The position numbers and the translations under genes were made by a program. Positions 21,295 to 33,798 of a stretch of 35,632 bases of DNA are shown here, one piece after another (position 1 is the stretch's first letter; every line of letters begins with the position of its first letter). The notes under the pieces are model-generated. The model worked only from the letters and a program-made list of their open reading frames with translations, had not been told where the DNA came from and did not search any database. The DNA comes from Licmophora abbreviata (taxonomy: Eukaryota), in contig OLMU01004772.1 in NCBI GenBank assembly GCA_900291995.1, positions 1 to 35,632 of the forward strand, written 5' to 3'.

Positions 21295-24200
21295 TTACAA
21301 ATTGATACGCTCGCTTTCCATCCTTGCTTGCCTATCTTCCGACAACCACTGCCTTAGAGACGACGCAATAGCGGTTGTATCCTTATGGTCGGCACCGAAA
21401 AGCACCGTGTACATTTCGAGAGCCTCGCGCAAGTGTGAGATTGACTTGATGCGTGATTCTTTCGTGTCGTCCTGTCGATGAATCGTTGCACACTTGATAT
21501 GTGCCTTGGCCTTCTCGACACGAGATGTGGCTGGGCTATCTTCCTTCACCTCCTGAAGCAATGTAGTGTAGGCTTCCAGAGCACCTTCAAAGTCACCCAT
21601 TTTCAGTTTCAGTGAGCCGACTCTTCCAAGCGCAGCCACCAGATGCTTGTGCTGCGAGGTACTCTTGACCGCTTCACCAGCATGGCCAGCTTTTCGTAGC
21701 AGTCCCTGCTCGTCAGCGTGCTCACGAAGTCCTTTGACTCCTTCCTCGTACGAGGCGATTGCTCCCTTCAAGTCGCCTTTCTTCGAGCAGATAGACGCGA
21801 TGTTAAGATTGATAAGAGTGACGTCGTAGTTGCATTTCATCTCGAACTCAGGGTCACGGATCAGAGGAGGAGCTAACGTTCTGTAAATTGACATTGCGCG
21901 TTGGTAGTGTACAAGAGCCTTCTCCATGCGACCATACTTGGCAAGCAAGATGGCGTAGCTATTGATTGCCTTCGCGACCGGTACACTATTCGCTCCATAT
22001 ACAGTCTTCTTTGCAGAGAACACTTCCTCAAACTTCGCGTCAGCACTGCTCCAGTCACCGACGTCGACCAACAAACTAGCGTAATTTTGAGCGTTGGCGA
22101 TGGCATCATGCTGCAAATTAGCATTGCACACGTCATAGATCCGAGTCGCTTCAGCGAACTTGAGAAGTGCCATTCGAGCCTCCCCGAGTTTCGTGAGCGC
22201 GCGAGCAACTGCATTCAGAGATCTCGCAACATCGATTGATCTGTTCGTGCTTCCAAGTATGCCGCGGTAGATGCCAAGCGCTTCCTCCAATCGAAGCATC
22301 GCGTCACGTTGCTGCTTGCCTTTCAGAAGTCCGTCGCCAACGAGCGACAGACAAAGCGCCCTGTCGAGAGCGTCGTGATCGTGCCTGAACACCTCTTCGA
22401 TGATGAGGAGACAACCGTCTCGAAGAGCAGCGTTGCCATCGACATTTTCTCCACCTTGGTCGTCTGATGCCACGCGTCGCAGCCCTGTCGATGTAGCCTC
22501 ACCCTCGTTCGATCCAACGCCGTTTGGCTTTGAAACAGACTTCTTGGAGGACGGAGGACCATGGCTGCACTCTCGACGGAGATCAAGCAGATCAGATACA
22601 TGTCGTCGGGTAGATTCGACAACGCCAAGTGCCCTAACACGGCGCCGGACGAATTCTTCATCAACCAAAAACTCGGCAGCAACCGGGTGTGATTCCGCTC
22701 GAATAAGATGAGTTGGCATGAAGGTGACGAGATACTCTTCCAGTTTGTCGCCCCCTTTGGTCCCCGCTACAATCCCCTCTGTGTCGTGAAAAGCCTGAAG
22801 GATAGGTCTACTCGCAACTCGTGCATCAAGCAGCGAGCCGACGACCAGATCGTGAACCTCACTGTCGTTGAGGCGTTCGCCTTTGCCATTGTTGTGGGAC
22901 AGCTGATCGGCGATGCGACGAAATGGAGCAGCCCAGAGTGGTCCTTGGCCGCCTCGTTTCTGAACGAAGACTGCTTCTGCGTCAGTTTCGTCAGCGAACG
23001 ACGTGTAGTCATCCAGAGTAGGTAGAAATGCTGGAGAAGCACGCTCTGAAATTCGCTCGGCCACTGCTTTGACCTGTTGGAGAGAGACAACGAGAGCACA
23101 AACAACTTGTGAATAAGGACTTCGACTGAGCAAAAATCTAATGAATTTCGATCCCTTACCGCGTCAGAAATAAGAAAAGAGGTGTTGTCAAATGAATCAA
23201 TGGAAGACAGATGTGAAGTCAAGGCATCACCCAGCGACTCGTCGTCATGTGCCTCTCCCTCGCCACCCGATTCAATTTGATCGGAAGCGTAGTCTGACTT
23301 AGGGGAGTGACATCCATGTCGAGCCCGCTGTAAGAGATGGACAGCCTCGAGACCCTCAAGAACAAGTTCCGCAGGAGGCTGACAAGCTTCGTCCAATCCG
23401 GCAGCAATAGTGGACGAGAAAAGCTTCAGAATTACACACTGCGGTATGCCCCGTCCCACCAAGACCCATTCATGCTCGCCAAACGCGGCCGCAAAAGTCA
23501 CGAGGCATCGACGCATACAGCAACGGACCGCAAGGTCTTCCACACTCAAGAAGCTGAGGTCAACAATCCGCGAAACAGAGTGAGCAAAGCTTCGCAGCCG
23601 TGAAGCTTCTTCCAGACTCATTCTGCATTGTCCGAGAAGAACTTTCCAGATTGCAGAAGAAAGGTTCCAATTGCGATTGTTGTGGCGCAGCATACCCCCA
23701 GCGATTCGGACCGCAAGTGGCGCGTTTCCACAGCCCTTCACGATCCCACGAGCTTGATTGAACACCGCAGAATTCTTTCCCCCATAGGGTCGCCGACCGG
23801 CAGATGAAAGCAGTAGCTTGACGGCCTCGTGTTCAGAGAAAATACGGACAAACACTTCTTGAACCACGCCAGCGCCAAGCAAGGAAGGTGTCCGAGTAGT
23901 GACCAGAATTCTACAGAGGTTGGAATCTGGCGACTCGACCGACTTCTTCACAAGCTGATCGAAGACGAACCACTTCGCGTCCTCAACTCGCCAAACATCG
24001 TCGAGGCAGATCAGAATCTTCCGCTGTGCTATGAGTTGCCCTAACTCCTCCTTGATAGATTCCAAGTCGCCTCCTTGGAATCTTCGCCTCGTGCTGGCTA
24101 TCTGCATCGAAATGTCATGCTCAGTATCAGACTTTCCACCCTTGTCGTCGAGACTCCCAAAACTGGAGCCTCCTCGCGACGCAGTATCCGCCTTGTCGTC

Positions 24201-26872
24201 AGAGGATCCTTGGACAGAGTTGCCATCGTGGACAGAGTCACGGTCAAAAAGTTGACGATACAGCTCGTCATAAAGACGGCGAATATCCTTCTCGTCCAGA
24301 GGGTTGCGCCCAAGATGCACCCATCCTATTCCATCCGGAAATCGTTCTCGCACTTCCACAGTCTGAATTGACGCGACTGCCAGGGTAGTTTTTCCATTGC
24401 CTGCTTTGTCCCCATGCCGAGATGTAATCGATGTAATGAATGAAGCTGCTGGAGTCTCTTCGTCCGTGTCTCGCGGACCAGCTCCACTATTGTCGCACAA
24501 GCAGTTGACAACCTGCTTCATCAGACGATGACGGTGAATGTACTCAAAAGGGAGGTTCGGTACTGCCGACGGAATGTCTGCTTTAGGCATCCAATCCGGC
24601 TTTAAGTTGGCCAGCTCACTGCCGATTGAAAAGAAGCGCCATTCTTTGGTAAGATTATTTCTTTCCTAATCATGTGTGGATAAAACAAAAGGCAACGTAC
24701 CTATCACTCGTCGAAGCGAGACGATTCTTCATTTTCTCTTCTCGTAGACCTCGGATAACATCAACAAGCTCATCCTTCGGCTTGACAGGTTTCGCTGCAG
24801 AGAGCTGCTGCTTTGGGGGCTTCGACCGCATAACGTTCCTCGCCGAGTCGCTGACACTAAGAGAACGCTGCAGCATGGCGAGGTTACCGCTCGTCACAGG
24901 CGTCGTAACGGCGGAGAAGCCATCATCAGCTGCTACTGCGCCGGCAGAGGCTCCAGACTTCTCTCGATGCTGCCGCAGTCGTGGTGTTGGCGTCGCTCGT
25001 CGCGCCCGTACGCGGCCTGCCGTGGGGAGTAGTTGTCGGCCACGGGTAAACATGCTCTTACGCCCACTGGCGCTGGATGTATCGGTCGATTTGGAAGAGC
25101 CGCTGACAGTGTCACTCGCGGTATCGGAGTCGTCGTCCGCTACCGAGCGCGTATCTGCCACTGCCCCAACCGCCTTTTCAACCCTTGAGTTCCAGGAGCG
25201 GATAGACTCGATGTCTCCTTTTTCATGAGGCTGCACCAAGCGAAAGAAAAGCGTGTACTTCCTCTCCCGCCGCACCAACATCCCCTCAAGAATTTTGTTA
25301 CACTTCTTGATCACATCACGGAGGCACTTGAAAGTCGTGTCGTCTTTCAGCGCCCCACGTGTGGCAGTATCAACCGCGACTTCGTCGACTAGGGCAAGGA
25401 GCTACGAACAAGAAATGCAGAAGAAGACTGGGTAAGGCATACTACGCTTCGAGGAGCCAGAACACGATCTGTTTCGAGTCCATTGAACTTACAAAGTCCA
25501 AGTTTCCTACAAACTCCCAGAGGACCGTTCTCGCCGAGATCTCCTCCGGACTCATAGTGGTTCCTTTCTCTTCTTCCTCCGGAACGGGCTTCTCCGGCGT
25601 TGCCCCCAAAGCAGCGTACGCGTCCTTGACACCCACGGCGAGCTCATGAAAGAGCTTCAGATTACTGGGTGCTTTACGAGGAAGCTTCGACGTCGATCCG
25701 GGCGCCTTCTGATTATAGTACGCGTCACTCTTACACGAAGTAACCGCTACCAGCATCGCCTTGTGCTCCGATTCTGCGTCGTGTTGCGTCTTTCTACTAC
25801 TAGATCGCGATCGAGACACCGACCGGATTCTTTCCAATACACCACGGCGACCAGATCGATTCGACTGGATCGGCGTGGTTTCCGTTGTTGCACTTCCTGT
25901 CGACAACAGAGACGCATTCTCAGAATCGTCATAACGCAAGGATGACCGACTGCTTCGACCACGCTCCACGGCTGGCACCTTCTCTTCTCCAGATTGCTTC
26001 TGACTGCTGGATACAGAAGAGTCTGACTCCTCGTCGCGGTGCTCAGGCTTCTTCTTCGATGCAAAACTGAGCCTCTTGCGAAATGATTTCTGTTTGTTGG
26101 TTTTGGGAGGCATACTATTCTTCGATGCAGTTGTCACTGTCGTGGCCATTTTTGGTTTCTGCAAACTAAGATTCACTCGCTTCCGACGAGGCGGCTTCAA
26201 AAGTTCGATGGGAATAAGACTTCTACTGAGAGCAGTAACGTCCTCCAATCTAGCCAAGGGAAAATCGTCAACTTCGTCGACACGCACCAACAGCTTAGGT
26301 CTGGCAAGTGGAGTCTCGAGCGTGGAGCGAAGAGGGCAAGATGCGCTTGGGCTTGTTTCTTTCGTAGCCTGCTGCTGTGATTCTCTGTCTGCAACTCGTT
26401 GTGCCCAAACTACTTGAGCTGTCTTGTCGATGTGTTCGCCGGAGTCGTCAAGATCGAACGAGTCGCTAGCTCTTCGTTTCTTCTGGCGTGGGCGGCACGG
26501 AGGTTTGTCGAATGCTTTAGGAGGAGGATCCCGATGAGCGACTTCAGAAGTTCTAACCGTCGGTTCGTCGTCTCTTCCAGTCCCAGTTTCTGATCCTCGC
26601 TGGTGATGTGGACCCTGATGACTCCGACTCGTCCTGCACTTGTTTGCACGATTTGAAGTGAGCTTTTCCTTGTCGCTATCTCTTCCAGATTTCAGACTTT
26701 CGTCCCCTTTTCCTTTTTCTTCCACAATAGGTTGCTTCCGAGCCCTTAGCGGCGAGACAAGAGAAGGATCCAAAAGTTGAGTTTTTGCAGAAAATGCCGT
26801 CGGCCTGTCATCCTCATGGCCCAGACCGGCGCTACGAGACTTTGCACCGGCGACGTAGCGGCTGGTAGACAT
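21295..26872 (-). CDS. NLR-like STAND NTPase: disordered N-terminus, helical bundle, NB-ARC, TPR repeats (~1772 aa)
   Basis: Exons 26872-25493, 25401-24701, 24618-23160 and 23073-21295 join in frame (5319 nt). Motifs: VPNLP...IHR (pre-P-loop), AGNGKTTLA (Walker A), ILICLDDVW (Walker B), RILVTTR (RNBS-B), CGNAPLAVRIAG (GLPL). Kinesin-light-chain-type TPRs (VARSLNAVA, VYGANSVPVAKAINSYA, LFGADHKDTTAI). Start codon uncertain; alternative ATG at 26149. Confidence 0.88.
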
Positions 26873-27675
26873 CCTACGAATCGTGCGGCGCGTCCGTTGC
26901 GCACGCTGGCCAATCCACACGAAAGCGCTCCGGGAATATAAATGCTGACGTCAATACTTAGAAGGGAAGACAGACACTGTGAAGAGTTGTGACACACGGA
27001 GCAGGCTTTTGAATCAAATATATTCCTCAGCCTTGTGGACTTGTATATGTTTCGTCTGCCCGACGTCCGCCAAGACACTGACAAAGAGACGACGACGACA
27101 CTGGCGAGGAGCAGTGCAAGAAATGTGGTCCGTATCACGATGGTCTCGTTGCTAAATTCGCCCCGGAAAGTCTAAATAGAGCAACCGGTTCTCAAGGTAT
27201 CGAGTGATATTTCAGAGGTCAAAATCTGATCCTCCTGTGGCAACCGTGTGAGGTTTTCCAAATTGACTCGAAAAACTTGCGGTCGTCGACGAAAAAAGTA
27301 CAAACGGCGATGGGTCTCAAGGGAACATTTTGAAGGAGTCTTCCACGATACGAAAGACACGATGAACGCGACGTGATGCTCACCTACTGTGCGTCTCGGC
27401 TCTCAATACCGTGGCAAAACAGCGTGGACGGGGACCACCAGCTTTGTTGTGGTTGAAAGTGTGATGACGACGCAAGAGTACTTTGGAATTTGTCGGTCTC
27501 GCCGGACAGTCGGAGTAGTCATAACAATGCTATACATACTCCAGCATTGAATAGAGGATATCATTTTCTACTATACGTGTTCGTAGAAACCCTATATTTC
27601 AACAGAAAGTCTGACATTTTTCTGCGACGACGATGGCAAAATCCATCAGAGAGATCAGAGCGGAACGGCGACATC

Positions 27676-28719
27676 ATGCCTCCCAGCGTAGAAGATCCGG
27701 CGTTGTTGGCCTCGGTTTCCTTTTTGGTGTCGGAGGGTGCATCCTGGGCAACACCGAAGGAAGGAGAAAGTGAATCGCCCGTTCATGTGCTTTCGAACGT
27801 CCGCTACGCCGACGACTCGCCTCTGCAGTCGCTGGATCTCTATTTTCCCGACGATCTACTCAGGTCATCATCGCCGATCAAGAAGCTTCCAGTCTACATT
27901 CACATACATGGAGGCGGATGGTCGCGTGGGTCGAAGGATAACTCCTTTTACGGTGGACCAGCCATGTCTCACAACGCAGCAGCCACAGGCTGTATCGCTG
28001 TCGCACCCGGATATCGACTAGGACAGTACCCCGAGTTCATGCTGGACGCCGCCACTGCGATTCGTTGGGTACGCGAACATATCACGGACCTGGGCGGTGA
28101 TCTATCCAAGGTTTTTCTCTCGGGACATTCCGCTGGAAGTCACATTGCGTCCCTGCTCGTGGTGCGGCATTCTACCTTTCTCGCGCCTGCAGGAATTCCT
28201 TTGGACTTCTTCACGGGACTGATACTGGCCTCGGGAGTCTATGACTTGTTCCAACCGCTACGCAAGGCCCCTCTCGATGCTAAGAACAAATGGTTCTATC
28301 TCGCCTATGTCCTACCGGCTTTTGGTAAAGACGAAACGCTGCGACGCGAAGCGTCCCCGCTGTTGCTCCTGGAACCAGACAAGGAGACGAGCTGGCTTGG
28401 GACTGTTGCCACGGCGATTCGAAGTTCTTGGACTGCTGCTGGTGACAACAACGACGAGTCAGCGGATGAAATCACGCGGGATGCATCGCCGTCACCATCA
28501 TTGGAAATCAACACGACGCATCTCCCTAGTACGCTCATCCTGAATGCTGCGTTCGACATGGGCCTCGAAGAGAATGGGGAACTGATGGCGGCAGCAATGT
28601 CCAAACACACGAAAGTCAAGTATGTTAGAGTGCCAGGGACGGACCATGCATCGATTTGTTGGAATGAAACGTCGACAACAGAGATGAGGGACTTTATCCG
28701 ATCTCATTGCCAGGAGTGA
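27676..28719 (+). CDS. Alpha/beta hydrolase, HSL family (kynurenine formamidase / isoprenylcysteine methylesterase-like)
   Basis: LDLYFP, oxyanion motif HIHGGGW, nucleophile elbow GHSAG, SGVYDL, candidate catalytic Asp (AAFD) and His (TDHAS). Intronless. Confidence 0.88.
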   Translation: MPPSVEDPALLASVSFLVSEGASWATPKEGESESPVHVLSNVRYADDSPLQSLDLYFPDDLLRSSSPIKKLPVYIHIHGGGWSRGSKDNSFYGGPAMSHNAAATGCIAVAPGYRLGQYPEFMLDAATAIRWVREHITDLGGDLSKVFLSGHSAGSHIASLLVVRHSTFLAPAGIPLDFFTGLILASGVYDLFQPLRKAPLDAKNKWFYLAYVLPAFGKDETLRREASPLLLLEPDKETSWLGTVATAIRSSWTAAGDNNDESADEITRDASPSPSLEINTTHLPSTLILNAAFDMGLEENGELMAAAMSKHTKVKYVRVPGTDHASICWNETSTTEMRDFIRSHCQE

Positions 28720-28906: not shown

Positions 28907-30246
28907 TTACTGCGTATGCTTTGCCTTCTTAGACTTGCTAGAGGCCTTGTCCTGCAGCTCAGAGAGAATGCCACTACTTGCTAGACAGATTCCAGACCAC
29001 CCCGTGAGGGAGAGCGAGTGTCCCTTCAAAAAGATCGAAAGCAAGACGGAAAAGATCTTGCGCGTCGTCGTGATAGTCGACAAGACGAGAGGATCAAAGT
29101 TGGCAATCGTGTAAAAGATAAAGGACTGGCCCACGGCAGAGCAGACGGCAAACTTGCAAATTTTCGCAAAGATTTCAGGATGATCCGAGCAAAAGGCCAT
29201 TCCCGAGGCGACTTCTCCCAGACCACCCGCAATCACCAAGGCTGTAAGGCACATGAAGAGGTTCGTCCAAAACATGAAATCGTATGGTTTGGGCTTGACA
29301 CCGACCTTGGCCGTTTCCTTCTTGAGACGCTTCTGGAAACCGGCAGTTACACCGTCCAAGAGGAGAGAAGCGACAATGTAAACGACCCCCATGGTGGAAG
29401 AAGTCGATCCCGCCCCCTTCTTTTTGTTCATGGAGACAATCGCTGTACCTCCAATTATGGCCGCCACCTGCAAGTACTCCCGCACCGAGTACGACGCTCC
29501 ACCGAGAAGCAACGATCCCGCCATGACGGGAGCCATCTTGCCACTCTTGGCAAGCGTGGCAACCGGAAAACTCAAACCGTTCGCCAGTGCCAAGCTGGTA
29601 CAGGCCTTGGCGGTGACTTGGGAGGCCCCCGAGACTGCGAAAAAGGGCAGCGGGATGCCCTTGGTCGGCCCGGTGACGGCCATGCCAATCAAGCCAAAGA
29701 CCACATTCGCAAAGGCTTCCAGCACCTGAAGGAACCAAGCTTGCTTGAAAGCCGACCCATCTTCGGCCTTGAAGCGGAAGACATCTTCCTGCAAGGACCC
29801 ATAGTACAAGAACGCGGTGTAAATGCCAGCGGCACCGATCAAGAGTTTGACGGCGTCTGGAAGGCCGGCAGAGGGAGCAGCATCCGTGCCTCCAGTCATG
29901 CTTAGTACGTTTGGACTGCAACGAATGAATTCGATACGAGATACGAACGTGAGTAAGCTTGCCGATATCGTCACTCTTTCGCCGTCAGCAGTCATACTTC
30001 CATAGCTCACCTTTTCTTTAGACTAGCGCCGACAGCAATGACAGAAGTCTTACTAGCTTGTTGGCTCACGGCCGTAAGAGAACCTTTAGTCGAGAGGGGT
30101 GAGTAGTTCGACGTGGGAATCGATGCGGAAGATCGAGCGTTGGGATGAGTATCGCCACCGGAAGCAAGGGCTGGCGTACTGATGCAGTAGGACACGAAGA
30201 TAACCAGCAATGCAATCAGGAACGACGACGAGCTGCGACGATTCAT
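28907..30246 (-). CDS. Nucleotide-sugar transporter of the UAA family (SLC35B1/UTr1-like) with N-terminal presequence
   Basis: Core motifs YGSLQE, FPVATLAKSGKMAPVM, LLLDGVT, GQSFIF and TTTRKIFSVLLS. Upstream exon 30246-30011 splices in frame (GTGAGC...TGCAG, intron 30010-29916) to exon 29915-28907, giving 414 aa. The core (29899-28907) is secure; exon 1 is less certain. Confidence 0.85.
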
Positions 30247-30781
30247 AAAGACTCTCCAACGACAAGAGAGCGATGACCAGGTGCTTTGAGGATGTTGACG
30301 CAGTAAAACAAGCGATCGAAAGAGGTCACAAAGAGCTAATGATGATAATGCCAACGAACAGCAACGACGCGCCGATCTTTGAGGGTCTTCGAGCCATCAC
30401 ATCATCGCCGCCGCGCGTCGTTCGTCTCGCGCATTCATTCGTTCGGTCTACGCGCTTCCACGTGTACGGTCGTAGAGGTCGCCGCCGTCCTCTCAGGAGC
30501 AACTTTGTGATGACCCGGATATACTCGTACTTTTGGCGCGCCAACGGAGGATGATGCGATGGATTCCTTCGGCGACGCTGAGTGAGCTGAGGATCGAGGA
30601 TGCAGCAGCGCTCGTGATCATTGCTCATTCATATTACCGTTCCTTCGCCTTTTGCTGTCGTAAGGTTCATTTCTAGGTTCTAGAGCTGTCGAGAGGCTTG
30701 CTAAAAAATCGTGACTTGAAAATCAGGAGAGAAAAAATTGAAACGGAGCACTGTATCATACGATACTTGCGCAGGAGAAGC

Positions 30782-31159
30782 ATGGGTTCCAATCAGAGTG
30801 TGGAAAGTCAAAATGACAAAAATGCGGCATTGCCTAATGATCCCTCTACCATCAGTCAGGAAGCAGGAGGAGCATCGAAGACTTCCAAAAGTAATCGTAG
30901 CAAGAAGAACAATCTCTCTGGCTTTCCCCTAATCCAACACAAGTGTCGACGGAAAAAGGCCGCGTACGACAAGTGTCATACTCAATGGTATCAAGGACTG
31001 TTCATCACTGGGAAAGATATCGATCGAGATGAAGATTGTGATGATTTATTTGACGACTACCGGGAGTGTATATTGCGAGGCATGAAGAAGGATCGGGAGA
31101 AGCGTGGACTCCAAGCTGCGGCCGAAGGCAGCATACTCGCCGAAGTCGATGACGAATGA
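30782..31159 (+). CDS. Mdm35/TRIAP1-like twin CX9C protein
   Basis: CRRKKAAYDKCHTQWY...F..G...CDDLFDDYREC matches the Mdm35/TRIAP1 pattern (C..K..YD.CF..W...F..G...C..LF..Y..C). N-terminal extension begins MGSNQS. Confidence 0.75.
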   Translation: MGSNQSVESQNDKNAALPNDPSTISQEAGGASKTSKSNRSKKNNLSGFPLIQHKCRRKKAAYDKCHTQWYQGLFITGKDIDRDEDCDDLFDDYRECILRGMKKDREKRGLQAAAEGSILAEVDDE

Positions 31160-31824
31160 GATGCCGACGAGGGTTGTACACATGATGAGTCATCCAACCT
31201 AGAGACAATTGTGGGTTTTGCAGCTGTCTGGTTCCGATGCTAGAGGGATGTTCCCGTTGTGCTGATGACTTTGTTCGGAAACTAGAGTGCAGCGTGCTCG
31301 GTGCACGTGCGACCAGCAAAGAAACGCGGCGCTGTTTCGCCTACATCCACGGTGTGATAATAGAAACAGCTAACTTTCTATGCAGCGCGAAGTATAAAGT
31401 GTTTCTATTCGTCTATAGGCGCTATGATTTACCGTCTACAATATGATCGAATACACCGCCTCTTCTGCGATTCAGTCGTGATCCCGATCGAGAAAGCGGG
31501 ATGGATGAGTCGTCTGCCGCGCGTTGTTACAGCCAAACAGAGCTAGCACGACTTTGGCGGGACTCAACTTCTGCATATCCAATGAATAACAATTCCAGAG
31601 TGATGAAATAATTAGCTTCATCCCCGTAGGATAATATAAACTCCGAGCACTCTGCACCTCTAAATTTTGGAAAGCGGGAAACACGCAAATTTCAAAGTTG
31701 CAACGGACCATGTGCTCATCGAGTTCGTTTGCACTTGTGAATAGCCTGTCTTGAGCCGTTGCTTGCCTTTGATCGTGTGCATCGGTGATATTTGTACTGA
31801 AGGTTGTTGGCTTTGAGGTGAATC

Positions 31825-33692
31825 ATGGTGCCACCGCCCAGCAAAACACCGCCGCGACCTGCAGCAGGTCCAGTCATGAGAATACGTCCTTTGCCACTGC
31901 CCTCTCCTTCACGTCGAGGAGTCGGTTCAACTGCTGTTGTGCCTCGAAAGACTGGATCGTTTGACATGGACAATTCATCGGCAAGCTCCTCTCGCTCCCC
32001 GACAGCAACAGATGTCTCGGACGGCAGTATTTTGAAGGGAGCGGAGCTCATTCGACGTCAAATTGTCGAGCGGAATCGTTTGGCAAATCTCGACAGCGAC
32101 GAAGATCGACTCGTGGTGTATGAAGAGAGCGAGATAACAGAAGGCGATGAAATCCTTCGATTGATTCAGCAGCAGGAGCAATTGGAAGCATATGTCGAGG
32201 AACAGCAAGAAGAGCGTCTCAGTCGAAGTTCGATTGAGCGAATGGAAGATGATCGGCTCGACGGTCTGATTCGGCGCGTGTCTTCTGTGAAAGAGGATGC
32301 CAAGCATGTTCTTGGATTTGAAACTGTTAAACAACCACCCAAAGCCGTTTCAGATGACGACTGGAGCGACCCCTTTCGCTCGCGGAGTCCGTTGACTGCT
32401 GCTGATCAGACTCTGGTCGCTCCCAGCGAGTTCTCTAGATGGTCGTCCGATGGCGATGCTACCGTGTCGCGCCCCAGCGATGAGAGCTCTAACGGACAGG
32501 ACAAGCCAGCGAGACGGCGATTTAGTGAACCGAATGGTGAAATCTTGTCGACTCCTCGTGCCGTTTATTCTGAATATGCACCCGAAGAAGAAGTAGAATC
32601 CTTGGACGTAGCCCTAGCGGTTGTACCTCCGCCTGTACCTCCGCCTGCAGACGACACGCCGGTAACTCTCATGGGACGCGGAAAGAGCTTACGACTCAAG
32701 ATTCACACGTATCATGTTCAGCGTACTGATGAAATGGGAGACAGTGACTCCTATGGTGAAGAGTCGGTGGAAGACATGCCTACCGACCCAAACCCTCTAC
32801 ATGAAATACTCGATGCTGTGGACCAAGCAGAGGAAGGTCCAGGAGCGTCGTATATTCCAAAACAGTGGCAAATGGCAGGAAGCCTTTCTCTACCAGCAAC
32901 ACTATACTCCCCTACGCGTGCAACACAGTCGACGCTGTCACGGGATCCTGCCTATCAACATGCACAGCGCGCTGGTCTACTCTGGCAGACATTGGTGGGC
33001 CAGCATGTTCGCTTTCCATCGAGCTGGTGGAATGGTTCCCGGTCGCCCCCGATGGGTATGGTAGACGATGCAGCTTTGAATGGGCGGGGGTATTGTGAAT
33101 GGGATTATGTGTCACGTCATCGCCAGTATTCGAACTCACTGTTGACGAGATTGGTGCGTAACCGTGGATCCGCAGGACAGTTGTTGTTGCATATTGTCGT
33201 ACGAGATCTAGTGACATGGTTGCCGGTACAAGACATTGCGATTGGAGTCTACCATCCGAACGCAAGGGGAATTCGACAAATGGAAAAGGCTGACATGAAA
33301 GAAGAAGACTGCCGTGTTGTATGGATGGCAGTTCGAAAACGAACCGAAGAGGACTCCGTGTCAGTGGTTGATCCCTTGTTGACAAGCGAAAGGAGACTAG
33401 AAGACGTCGCGAGTGGGACACCTTTGAGGGAAAGAGGGCGTGTGACAAATGCCAATATGCGAGCTGTTTATGGAGATAAGCCGCCTTTGAGGACGGTGTT
33501 TATTTTGGAGAGCGAGCTATACGAACGTATGACCATGGCCAGGGAAGAGAAGCAAGGCAACCTACCAACACTTGTTTTACTCCGGGAGTTCTTGCCAGTA
33601 CGTACAATTGTGGGATATAACACACTTAATGTATGGTCTTTCGATTCATCTTACCTCCCTTTCTTCCTTTCTCGTTCCCACAGGATTCATAG
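31825..33692 (+). CDS. Hypothetical protein with a disordered N-terminal half and a globular Trp-rich C-terminal domain
   Basis: Long ORF 31825-33597, intron 33598-33683 (GTACGT...CACAG), and a short last exon GAT TCA TAG. The C-terminal region (HAQRAGLLWQTLVGQHVRFPSSWW...DIAIGVYHPNARGIR) looks folded. No family recognised. Confidence 0.75.
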
Positions 33693-33798
33693 AAAGGGCA
33701 GTGTTCGCTTGTTCGACAATCTAGTGCAATCGAACCTTTAGGACGCCTAACATATAACTCGTTCGCATTGTTTGCGTGGCTGTCGGTGATGTTCTACT

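Follow-up and report, generated by a model that had tools for sequence, protein, structure and literature searches.

A strongly conserved head domain, predicted to hold a four-helix bundle, in a putative NB-ARC-TPR STAND ATPase of diatoms

In characterised STAND proteins (signal transduction ATPases with numerous domains), the domain N-terminal of the nucleotide-oligomerisation domain (NOD) is usually an effector or an adaptor. For example, in resistosomes of the ZAR1 type the first helix, at the free N-terminus, serves membrane insertion, and both MLKL and NRG1 bind lipid via basic patches. Fungal NLRs in which NB-ARC is followed by tetratricopeptide repeats (TPR) reportedly carry HeLo or HeLo-like heads, which are helical and death-related. 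Diatoms contribute a large share of marine primary production, and their blooms end via virus- and stress-triggered cell death, the molecular executioners of which are, to our knowledge, poorly known. Among other stramenopiles, NB-ARC-TPR genes of the brown alga Ectocarpus are put forward as candidates for pathogen receptors that evolve fast and whose exons are shuffled in a highly dynamic way (PMC3341825). A proteomics study of Thalassiosira pseudonana places an NB-ARC-containing TPR protein, possibly the ortholog of the gene described here, among its 'PCD-related proteins' (PCD, programmed cell death; PMC5599023). Here we describe a gene of the NB-ARC-TPR kind in Licmophora abbreviata, on a stretch of 35,632 nucleotides (contig OLMU01004772.1 of assembly GCA_900291995.1, positions 1 to 35,632; the window, hereafter), and the domain at its head, which is a new, previously undescribed domain family, diatom-restricted among named matches, and probably the output module of the protein. 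The original prediction, made by eye, had proposed this domain as a candidate MLKL/HeLo/RPW8-like four-helix executioner lying between two disordered tracts in the N-terminal part of an NLR-like protein. The gene is laid out as follows.

21295..26872, minus strand: whole gene, four exons and 1786 codons without internal stop (from open reading frames, translations, splice sites and tblastn)
26872-25493, minus strand: exon 1, with the ATG at 26872
25402-25492, minus strand: intron 1, 91 nt, GTAAGT...TAG, phase 0, splitting alpha2 of the head
25401-24701, minus strand: exon 2
24661-24700, minus strand: intron 2 (tentative), 40 nt, GTACGT..AG, phase 2
24660-23160, minus strand: exon 3, the NB-ARC nucleotide-binding switch
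23074-23159, minus strand: intron 3, 86 nt, GT..AG
23073-21295, minus strand: exon 4, stop included, the helical middle part and then the C-terminal TPR array

From its N-terminus, the protein consists of a variable disordered region, the helical head domain, a linker, NB-ARC and TPR. Exon 3 matches the Pfam family NB-ARC (PF00931) with an E-value of 1.3e-18 and 67.6 bits against a cut-off of 23.5, just downstream of the head, so that its predicted setting in an NLR-like protein was borne out. The P-loop GNGKTT at 24384-24401 (minus strand) is intact, and its residues G87, N88, G89 and K90 are invariant across 19 aligned sequences. Exon 4 matches TPR_12 (1.7e-22), with TPR_1, TPR_10, TPR_7 and TPR_2 also above their cut-offs; no Pfam family was found in the translations of exons 1 and 2. 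Because NB-ARC, an intact P-loop and a TPR array occur in one protein, we regard the product of the window gene as a putative STAND ATPase of the NB-ARC-TPR kind. A profile of NB-ARC homologs gave weak matches in the PDB to Roq1 (1.2e-6), Apaf-1 (5.4e-4) and NRC4 (6.6e-4), a profile being needed for this, as the NB-ARC exon searched as a single sequence returned no match among PDB sequences. One homolog matched the Pfam family APAF1_C, the Apaf-1 helical domain (4e-8), and PADLOC gave no match for the proteins P0001, P0003, P0009 and P0096.

The head covers about 175 residues (amino acids 373-545; 25756-25147, minus strand) and is divided between the first two exons.

25493..25756, minus strand: first half of the head, amino acids 373-460, with beta1 (374-378), a conserved loop, alpha1 (403-422), a variable acidic loop and the start of alpha2
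25147..25401, minus strand: second half of the head, amino acids 461-545, with the rest of alpha2, the DTATRGALKDD turn, alpha3 (482-501), a hairpin and alpha4 (521-542)

Conservation rises sharply at about residue 373 and ends at about residue 545, the variable acidic loop being its sole interruption, and the domain opens, ahead of helix 1, with a beta-strand followed by a loop, both of them conserved (LVAVTSC.SDAYYNQKAPGSTSKLPRKAP). The island of about 135 residues that had been picked out by eye is therefore a discrete conserved domain, but one that extends over about 175 residues and starts some 30 residues further upstream. The head is the best-conserved region of the protein: among 22 full-length homologs, mean identity to the window protein is 72% in the head, 58% in NB-ARC, 57% in TPR and 32% in the middle part, and across 17 sequences, taken from both centric and pennate diatoms, 70 of 174 head positions do not vary. 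A search with residues 1-100 of exon 2 gave 188 protein matches at E<=0.01, of which the best 120 are listed, at E 1.6e-38 to 3.9e-28 and 60-84% identity; among the matches listed, NB-ARC is present in the majority and TPR as well in many, and for a few short sequences no Pfam domain is recorded. An organism name is attached to 12 of these 120, and all 12 are diatoms, comprising the pennate genera Nitzschia (two species), Seminavis, Mayamaea, Pseudo-nitzschia (JGI label Psemu1), Cylindrotheca and Fistulifera, the centric genera Thalassiosira, Conticribra, Discostella and Skeletonema, and the genus Attheya.

A hidden Markov model profile of the head, run against 1.84 billion cluster representatives, returned 141 matches at E<=0.001 and 130 at E<=1e-10, the strongest reaching 6.5e-94. 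They comprise full-length NB-ARC(-TPR) proteins, short pieces that cover profile positions 1-88 or 88-173, one exon each, and one spurious repeat protein, P0245. A Pfam scan of 10 divergent matches found NB-ARC in six, two of these with TPR and one with APAF1_C too, the other four being three short sequences without a domain and P0245 with its unrelated repeat. No second architecture carrying the head was seen in the 141 matches, many of which are fragments. The most divergent true members, P0210, P0229 and P0129, are incomplete records 28-39% identical to the main group, and a search with P0210 returned P0210 alone, on a contig of 1643 bases. P0125 and P0126 (208 and 202 residues) consist of a diverged whole head and little else, P0125 having several otherwise invariant residues changed and unrelated sequence past helix 4; either could be a fragment, a pseudogene or a shortened paralog. 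The full-text literature searched yielded no account of the head.

The two halves of the head are joined across intron 1. The exon 1 translation (25496-26872, minus strand) ends in '...SNLKLFHELAVGVKDAYAALGATPEKPVPEEEEKGTTMSPEEISARTVLWEFVGNLD' and that of exon 2 (24697-25401, minus strand) begins 'LLALVDEVAVDTATRGALKDDTTFKCLRDVIKKCNKILEGMLVRRERKYTLFFRLVQPHEKGDIESIRSWNSRVEKAVGAV...', so that the peptide quoted in the original prediction is encoded exactly by these exons, and the splice that it had assumed also proved right. Splice sites were read off the sequence and then checked for an open frame: without splicing of this 91-nt GT-AG intron the frame ends in a stop, and the tblastn match is interrupted at the site in five of five full-length homologs. 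Over the whole gene, full-length homologs give four collinear blocks with breaks at the exon ends, again in five of five. The intron 1 junction is contiguous in 29 of 51 aligned homologs and occupied by an in-frame unspliced insert in eight, with 14 lying outside the search pattern and counted neither way; as the eight inserts start exactly after '...NLDF', the intron position is common to different diatom species. In the eight database models that retain the intron in frame (P0018, P0006, P0023, P0035, P0027, P0017, P0066 and P0056), the read-through inserts 22-39 spurious residues midway along helix 2, and many further database entries are single-exon fragments that begin at the exon 2 boundary. 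The view that no real domain exists, and that visual inspection had found an amphipathic pattern in sequence that is non-coding or wrongly spliced, is refuted by homolog matches of the strength given above, by the conserved intron position and by the confident folds described below, and we give it practically no credence.

Two AlphaFold2 models were made of the head. Model 1, from a 17-row alignment whose first row is 63-86% identical to the other rows, has a mean pLDDT (predicted local distance difference test) of 83.0 and a pTM (predicted template modelling score) of 0.81, and reads as strand 3-7, short helix 12-15, helix 32-51, short helix 60-66, helix 69-97, helix 99-107, helix 109-128, a hairpin of strands 129-133 and 137-141, and helix 148-169. 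Model 2, for which the target in a 14-row alignment was the divergent P0210 (identity to the other rows 28-39%), reaches a pLDDT of 83.1 and a pTM of 0.77, with long helices at 35-53, 72-107, 120-137 and 159-181. Both follow one topology, strand, helix, helix, helix, hairpin, helix, and since the same element order came out of the two models, the fold is predicted to consist of four long helices and a small three-stranded sheet, which in both is made of the strand at the N-terminal edge of the domain and the basic, aromatic alpha3-alpha4 hairpin LVRRERKYTLFFR. The four-helix core that had been foreseen is thus supported by two models at a pLDDT of about 83, with an up-down bundle of four long helices of the kind that marks the executioner families (roughly 110-150 residues); the predicted three-stranded sheet comes on top of it and is not typical of these families. 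On the window protein, to which secondary structure was mapped by alignment from the AlphaFold2 model of a 75-86% identical relative, alpha2 occupies residues 442-470 and the hairpin 502-514 (strands 502-506 and 510-514).

Invariant polar residues number 6/10 in alpha1, 6/12 in alpha3, 4/6 in the DTATRGALKD turn and 5/5 in the hairpin strands, and alpha3 and the hairpin hold a cluster of invariant Lys and Arg. The head as a whole is charge-neutral (25 K+R, 24 D+E), and none of its helices has transmembrane-grade hydrophobicity. A prediction of self-association of four head copies gave no verdict (score 0.00), with the fold of the partner uncertain and the alignment not used, and it speaks neither for nor against self-association. 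A catalytic pair formed by C380 and H409, both invariant in the 17-sequence alignment, was considered and rejected: P0210 has Ile and P0129 has Tyr at the position of H409, and P0229 has Asn at that of C380, so that the pair is not kept in divergent members and a thiol enzyme is unlikely.

In fold class and in position N-terminal of NB-ARC, the predicted four-helix bundle resembles the CC, CC-R and MLKL heads. It is conceivable, though we doubt it, that the head is an analogue or remote homologue of the CC, CC-R (RPW8-like), MLKL or HeLo executioners and kills the cell as a membrane pore or cation channel, inserting after oligomerisation of NB-ARC and possibly after proteolytic loss of the N-terminal extension. 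At the level of sequence, MLKL_NTD, HeLo, HeLo-like N, RPW8 and Rx_N, which we take to be the Pfam families of four-helix executioner heads, were matched by none of 17 head sequences (Pfam-A hmmscan at E<=10), the scan giving noise only (Herpes_U34 in four of 17, best E 0.0073). The head profile likewise found no match among PDB sequences at E<=10, a limit to be read with the HMMER filters in mind, which discard most matches above an E of about 0.1. At the level of structure, neither model reached E<=0.001 against any PDB entry in Foldseek. The CC-R domain of NRG1.1 (7l7v_F; E 0.15, probability 0.99, template modelling score 0.55 on the target) nevertheless ranked first for model 1 and the MLKL N-terminal domain (2msv; E 0.56) fifth for model 2, and the matches take in the whole target domain (e.g. 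chain residues 2-118) and all four model helices. NRG1 is absent among the model 2 matches listed in both structure searches, which counts against the executioner reading. MLA13 CC, ZAR1, MLKL and the Sw-5b N-terminal domain fall in the top 50 of 48,161 chains with both models, at the following structure scores (model 1 / model 2).

MLA13 CC: 6.2 / 5.9
ZAR1: 5.9 / 5.8
MLKL (4btf): 5.5 / 5.4
MLKL (6ux8): not listed / 4.9
NRG1.1: 5.5 / not listed
Sw-5b N-terminal domain: 5.3 / 4.5
Gamma-tubulin complex proteins: up to 6.9 / up to 7.3
Dynein linker: up to 6.5 / up to 6.7
Cbl TKB bundle: 6.2 / 6.3

The NLR and MLKL heads are thus equalled or outscored by unrelated bundles, namely those of gamma-tubulin complex proteins, the dynein linker and Cbl TKB, and the structural likeness is suggestive, a noteworthy recurrence that is not significant and by which homology is not established. 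Of the likeness to MLKL, HeLo and RPW8 claimed originally, the fold class and the structural recurrence of NLR and MLKL heads are supported, but a match in sequence and a clear lead over unrelated folds are not.

Other properties of the head bear on an executioner role in both directions. The cluster of invariant Lys and Arg would suit lipid binding of the kind known from MLKL and NRG1, and no second protein with the head was seen, contrary to what a homotypic adaptor would lead one to expect. On the other hand, helix 1 is not free at the N-terminus: in the gene model, 372 residues precede the domain and some 30 conserved residues, including a strand that belongs to the fold, precede the helix. 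Identity across diatoms is 59-78%, with many invariant polar residues, unlike the bundles of CC and MLKL, which are variable. Because no sequence match to these families was found and the first helix is not free, the head is not to be filed as a member of an executioner family.

The regions on either side of the head contain the following features.

25757..26872, minus strand: N-terminal extension, amino acids 1-372, low complexity, Ser/Arg/Lys-rich, variable
26063..26266, minus strand: moderately conserved island in the extension, amino acids ~203-270, KLLVRVDEVDDFPLARLEDV...
24701..25146, minus strand: linker, amino acids 546-694, mostly low complexity, with conserved motifs inside
24973..25044, minus strand: basic linker motif RGRQLLPTAGRVRARRATPTPRLR, columns at least 90% conserved in 51 homologs
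24742..24777, minus strand: conserved linker-end motif KDELVDVIRGLR, at the end of exon 2, before the NB-ARC exon

Over half of the N-terminal extension is covered in only three of 22 full-length homologs, at 19-37% identity. Its island at residues ~203-270 finds blastp matches in 17 of 248 collected proteins (31-59% identity), which indicates that the extension is coding in closer relatives at least, and tblastn matches from P0004 and P0008 extend into it. That the domain is preceded by long sequence, as had been remarked, holds generally: in 122 collected proteins with a domain start, 0 to 536 residues precede the head, 15-536 in 111 of them and four or fewer in 11. Homologs have I, T or M at position 373, and we therefore discarded the idea that Met373 is a conserved internal start across the family; nine collected proteins begin with Met four residues ahead of the VTSC motif. 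The linker has a mean identity of 48% (22 of 22 homologs). Within the basic linker motif, R, G, R ... R, R, A, T, P, T, P are nearly invariant in a second alignment, and the motif includes an RRxT site of basophilic-kinase type followed by TP; it could also act in docking or as a nuclear localisation signal. A (D/E)DG(F/Y) motif lies about 20 residues beyond it, and the linker-end motif may form a helix packing on the ATPase or the head. A below-cut-off match of the basic linker to HTH_31 (E 0.0067) was taken as compositional noise. Of the two disordered flanks originally described, the upstream one is indeed variable and of low complexity, but the downstream one holds strongly conserved motifs.

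These linker motifs suggest regulation, for example through the basophilic RRxT site, and the head itself might have no output role, serving instead as a regulatory or localisation module that docks on NB-ARC to hold it off or tethers the protein to some structure in the cell; the protein would in that case be a housekeeping STAND switch and not a device of death or immunity. The distribution of what appears to be one strongly conserved family across diatoms, unlike that of fast-evolving, expanded NLR repertoires, would fit such a role. We nevertheless hold it to be distinctly improbable: a domain in this position is usually an effector or adaptor, as set out above, the conservation of the head exceeds that of the ATPase itself and goes beyond the needs of a tether, and the structural rows named fall below significance.

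A speculative combination of these elements, which we think unlikely, is that diatoms hold one conserved resistosome- or apoptosome-like machine with a latched four-helix head that is freed to attack the membrane. The N-terminal strand and basic hairpin would act as a clasp, and a protease specific for Arg/Lys would cleave within the invariant basic loop that lies exposed directly ahead of helix 1 (…KLPRKAP…); alternatively, the trigger might be phosphorylation of the invariant RRATPTP site in the linker. If this were true, a CC/MLKL-type executioner would exist outside plants, animals and fungi, and the protein might be the executioner, long searched for, that carries out programmed cell death of diatoms during bloom collapse and viral infection.

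The reading that we favour, and consider probable, is that the head is the output module, effector or adaptor, of a conserved diatom NB-ARC-TPR STAND ATPase and acts on a conserved heterologous target. NB-ARC and TPR follow the head in the same gene, and the order is the same in homologs. By analogy with how STAND proteins work generally, the TPR array would sense a ligand, NB-ARC would exchange nucleotide and oligomerise, and oligomerisation would bring the heads together, giving output by induced proximity; the clustered heads would then engage their target, which may be a protein or a lipid head-group. The invariant polar surface and the lack of a second carrier of the head argue for a heterologous conserved partner rather than a homotypic death-fold partner. 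We also think that the head is probably not a simple amphipathic pore former, with which the extra beta-sheet, the 372 residues in front and the many invariant polar residues fit poorly. Several points weigh against this reading. The idea of induced proximity is carried over from other STAND proteins and is not a result; the AlphaFold2 alignments are shallow (17 and 14 rows) with 11 rows in common, so that the models are not fully independent; and because many of the 141 matches are fragments (P0126 and P0210, for example), a stand-alone or differently fused copy is possible. The polar conservation could also stem from intramolecular docking on NB-ARC, and the recurrent structure matches to NLR CC domains and MLKL are equally compatible with a pore or membrane function, as is the cluster of basic residues formed by alpha3 and the hairpin.

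The two downstream introns differ in how they were placed. Intron 2, very short at 40 nt, is the sole GT..AG pair found by reading that links the conserved frames of exons 2 and 3, and as the residues flanking it are not conserved, homology cannot confirm it. Intron 3 is one of two frame-keeping GT..AG pairs in the scanned ranges, and the pair chosen puts the start of exon 4 at 23073, where the tblastn matches of homologs restart. A sequencing run of uncertain kind has three short contigs on the gene (22495-22743, 24491-24645 and 26542-26942), none with splice joints. The neighbouring genes are ordinary, encoding an Abhydrolase_3 protein (27457-28719, plus strand), a UAA transporter (28907-30022, minus strand) and a UPF0203 protein (30677-31159, plus strand), and a 639-codon open frame at 31822-33741 (plus strand) has no Pfam match at E<=0.001.

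From an ecological point of view, the presence of an NLR/Apaf-1-type switch in both centric and pennate diatoms, with the head as its most conserved part, makes the gene a concrete candidate for a core signalling or death pathway, and it is present in model diatoms that are amenable to editing. For NLR evolution, the head adds a new stramenopile family of N-terminal domains under strong constraint, the opposite of usual immune receptors. If the head were a CC/MLKL-like membrane module, that mechanism would extend to another eukaryotic supergroup; if not, it would represent a new output logic for STAND proteins.

Set beside the described systems, the diatom protein shares features with several of them. 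NRG1.1, the CC-R protein ranked first for model 1 (PDB 7L7V, 7L7W), has no Pfam sequence match to the diatom head and does not occur among the model 2 rows listed; compared with it, the diatom head adds a three-stranded sheet, a long acidic loop and a long N-terminal extension, and the C-terminal repeats are TPR, those of NRG1.1 being leucine-rich repeats. MLA13 CC, ZAR1 CC and MLKL (PDB 9FYC, 6J5T, 4BTF, 2MSV and 6UX8) do not score above unrelated bundles, and in contrast to them the diatom head has no free N-terminal helix 1 and far higher sequence conservation; MLKL, moreover, is driven by a pseudokinase, whereas the diatom protein would be driven by its NOD. Like the fungal NB-ARC-TPR NLRs, the diatom protein has NB-ARC and then TPR. 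The same order is found in Ectocarpus, another stramenopile; compared with the fast evolution put forward for the brown-algal genes (PMC3341825), the diatom protein differs in its strong conservation and in a head that, among matches with an organism name, was seen in diatoms only. With Apaf-1 (CARD-NB-ARC-HD2-WD40), finally, the diatom protein differs in that its head lacks a death fold, the 141 profile matches include no partner seen to share the domain and the sensor is TPR, but the two share strong conservation, an apparently single family and the same arrangement of an N-terminal output domain, NB-ARC and a C-terminal repeat sensor, the diatom head standing in the place of the output domain.

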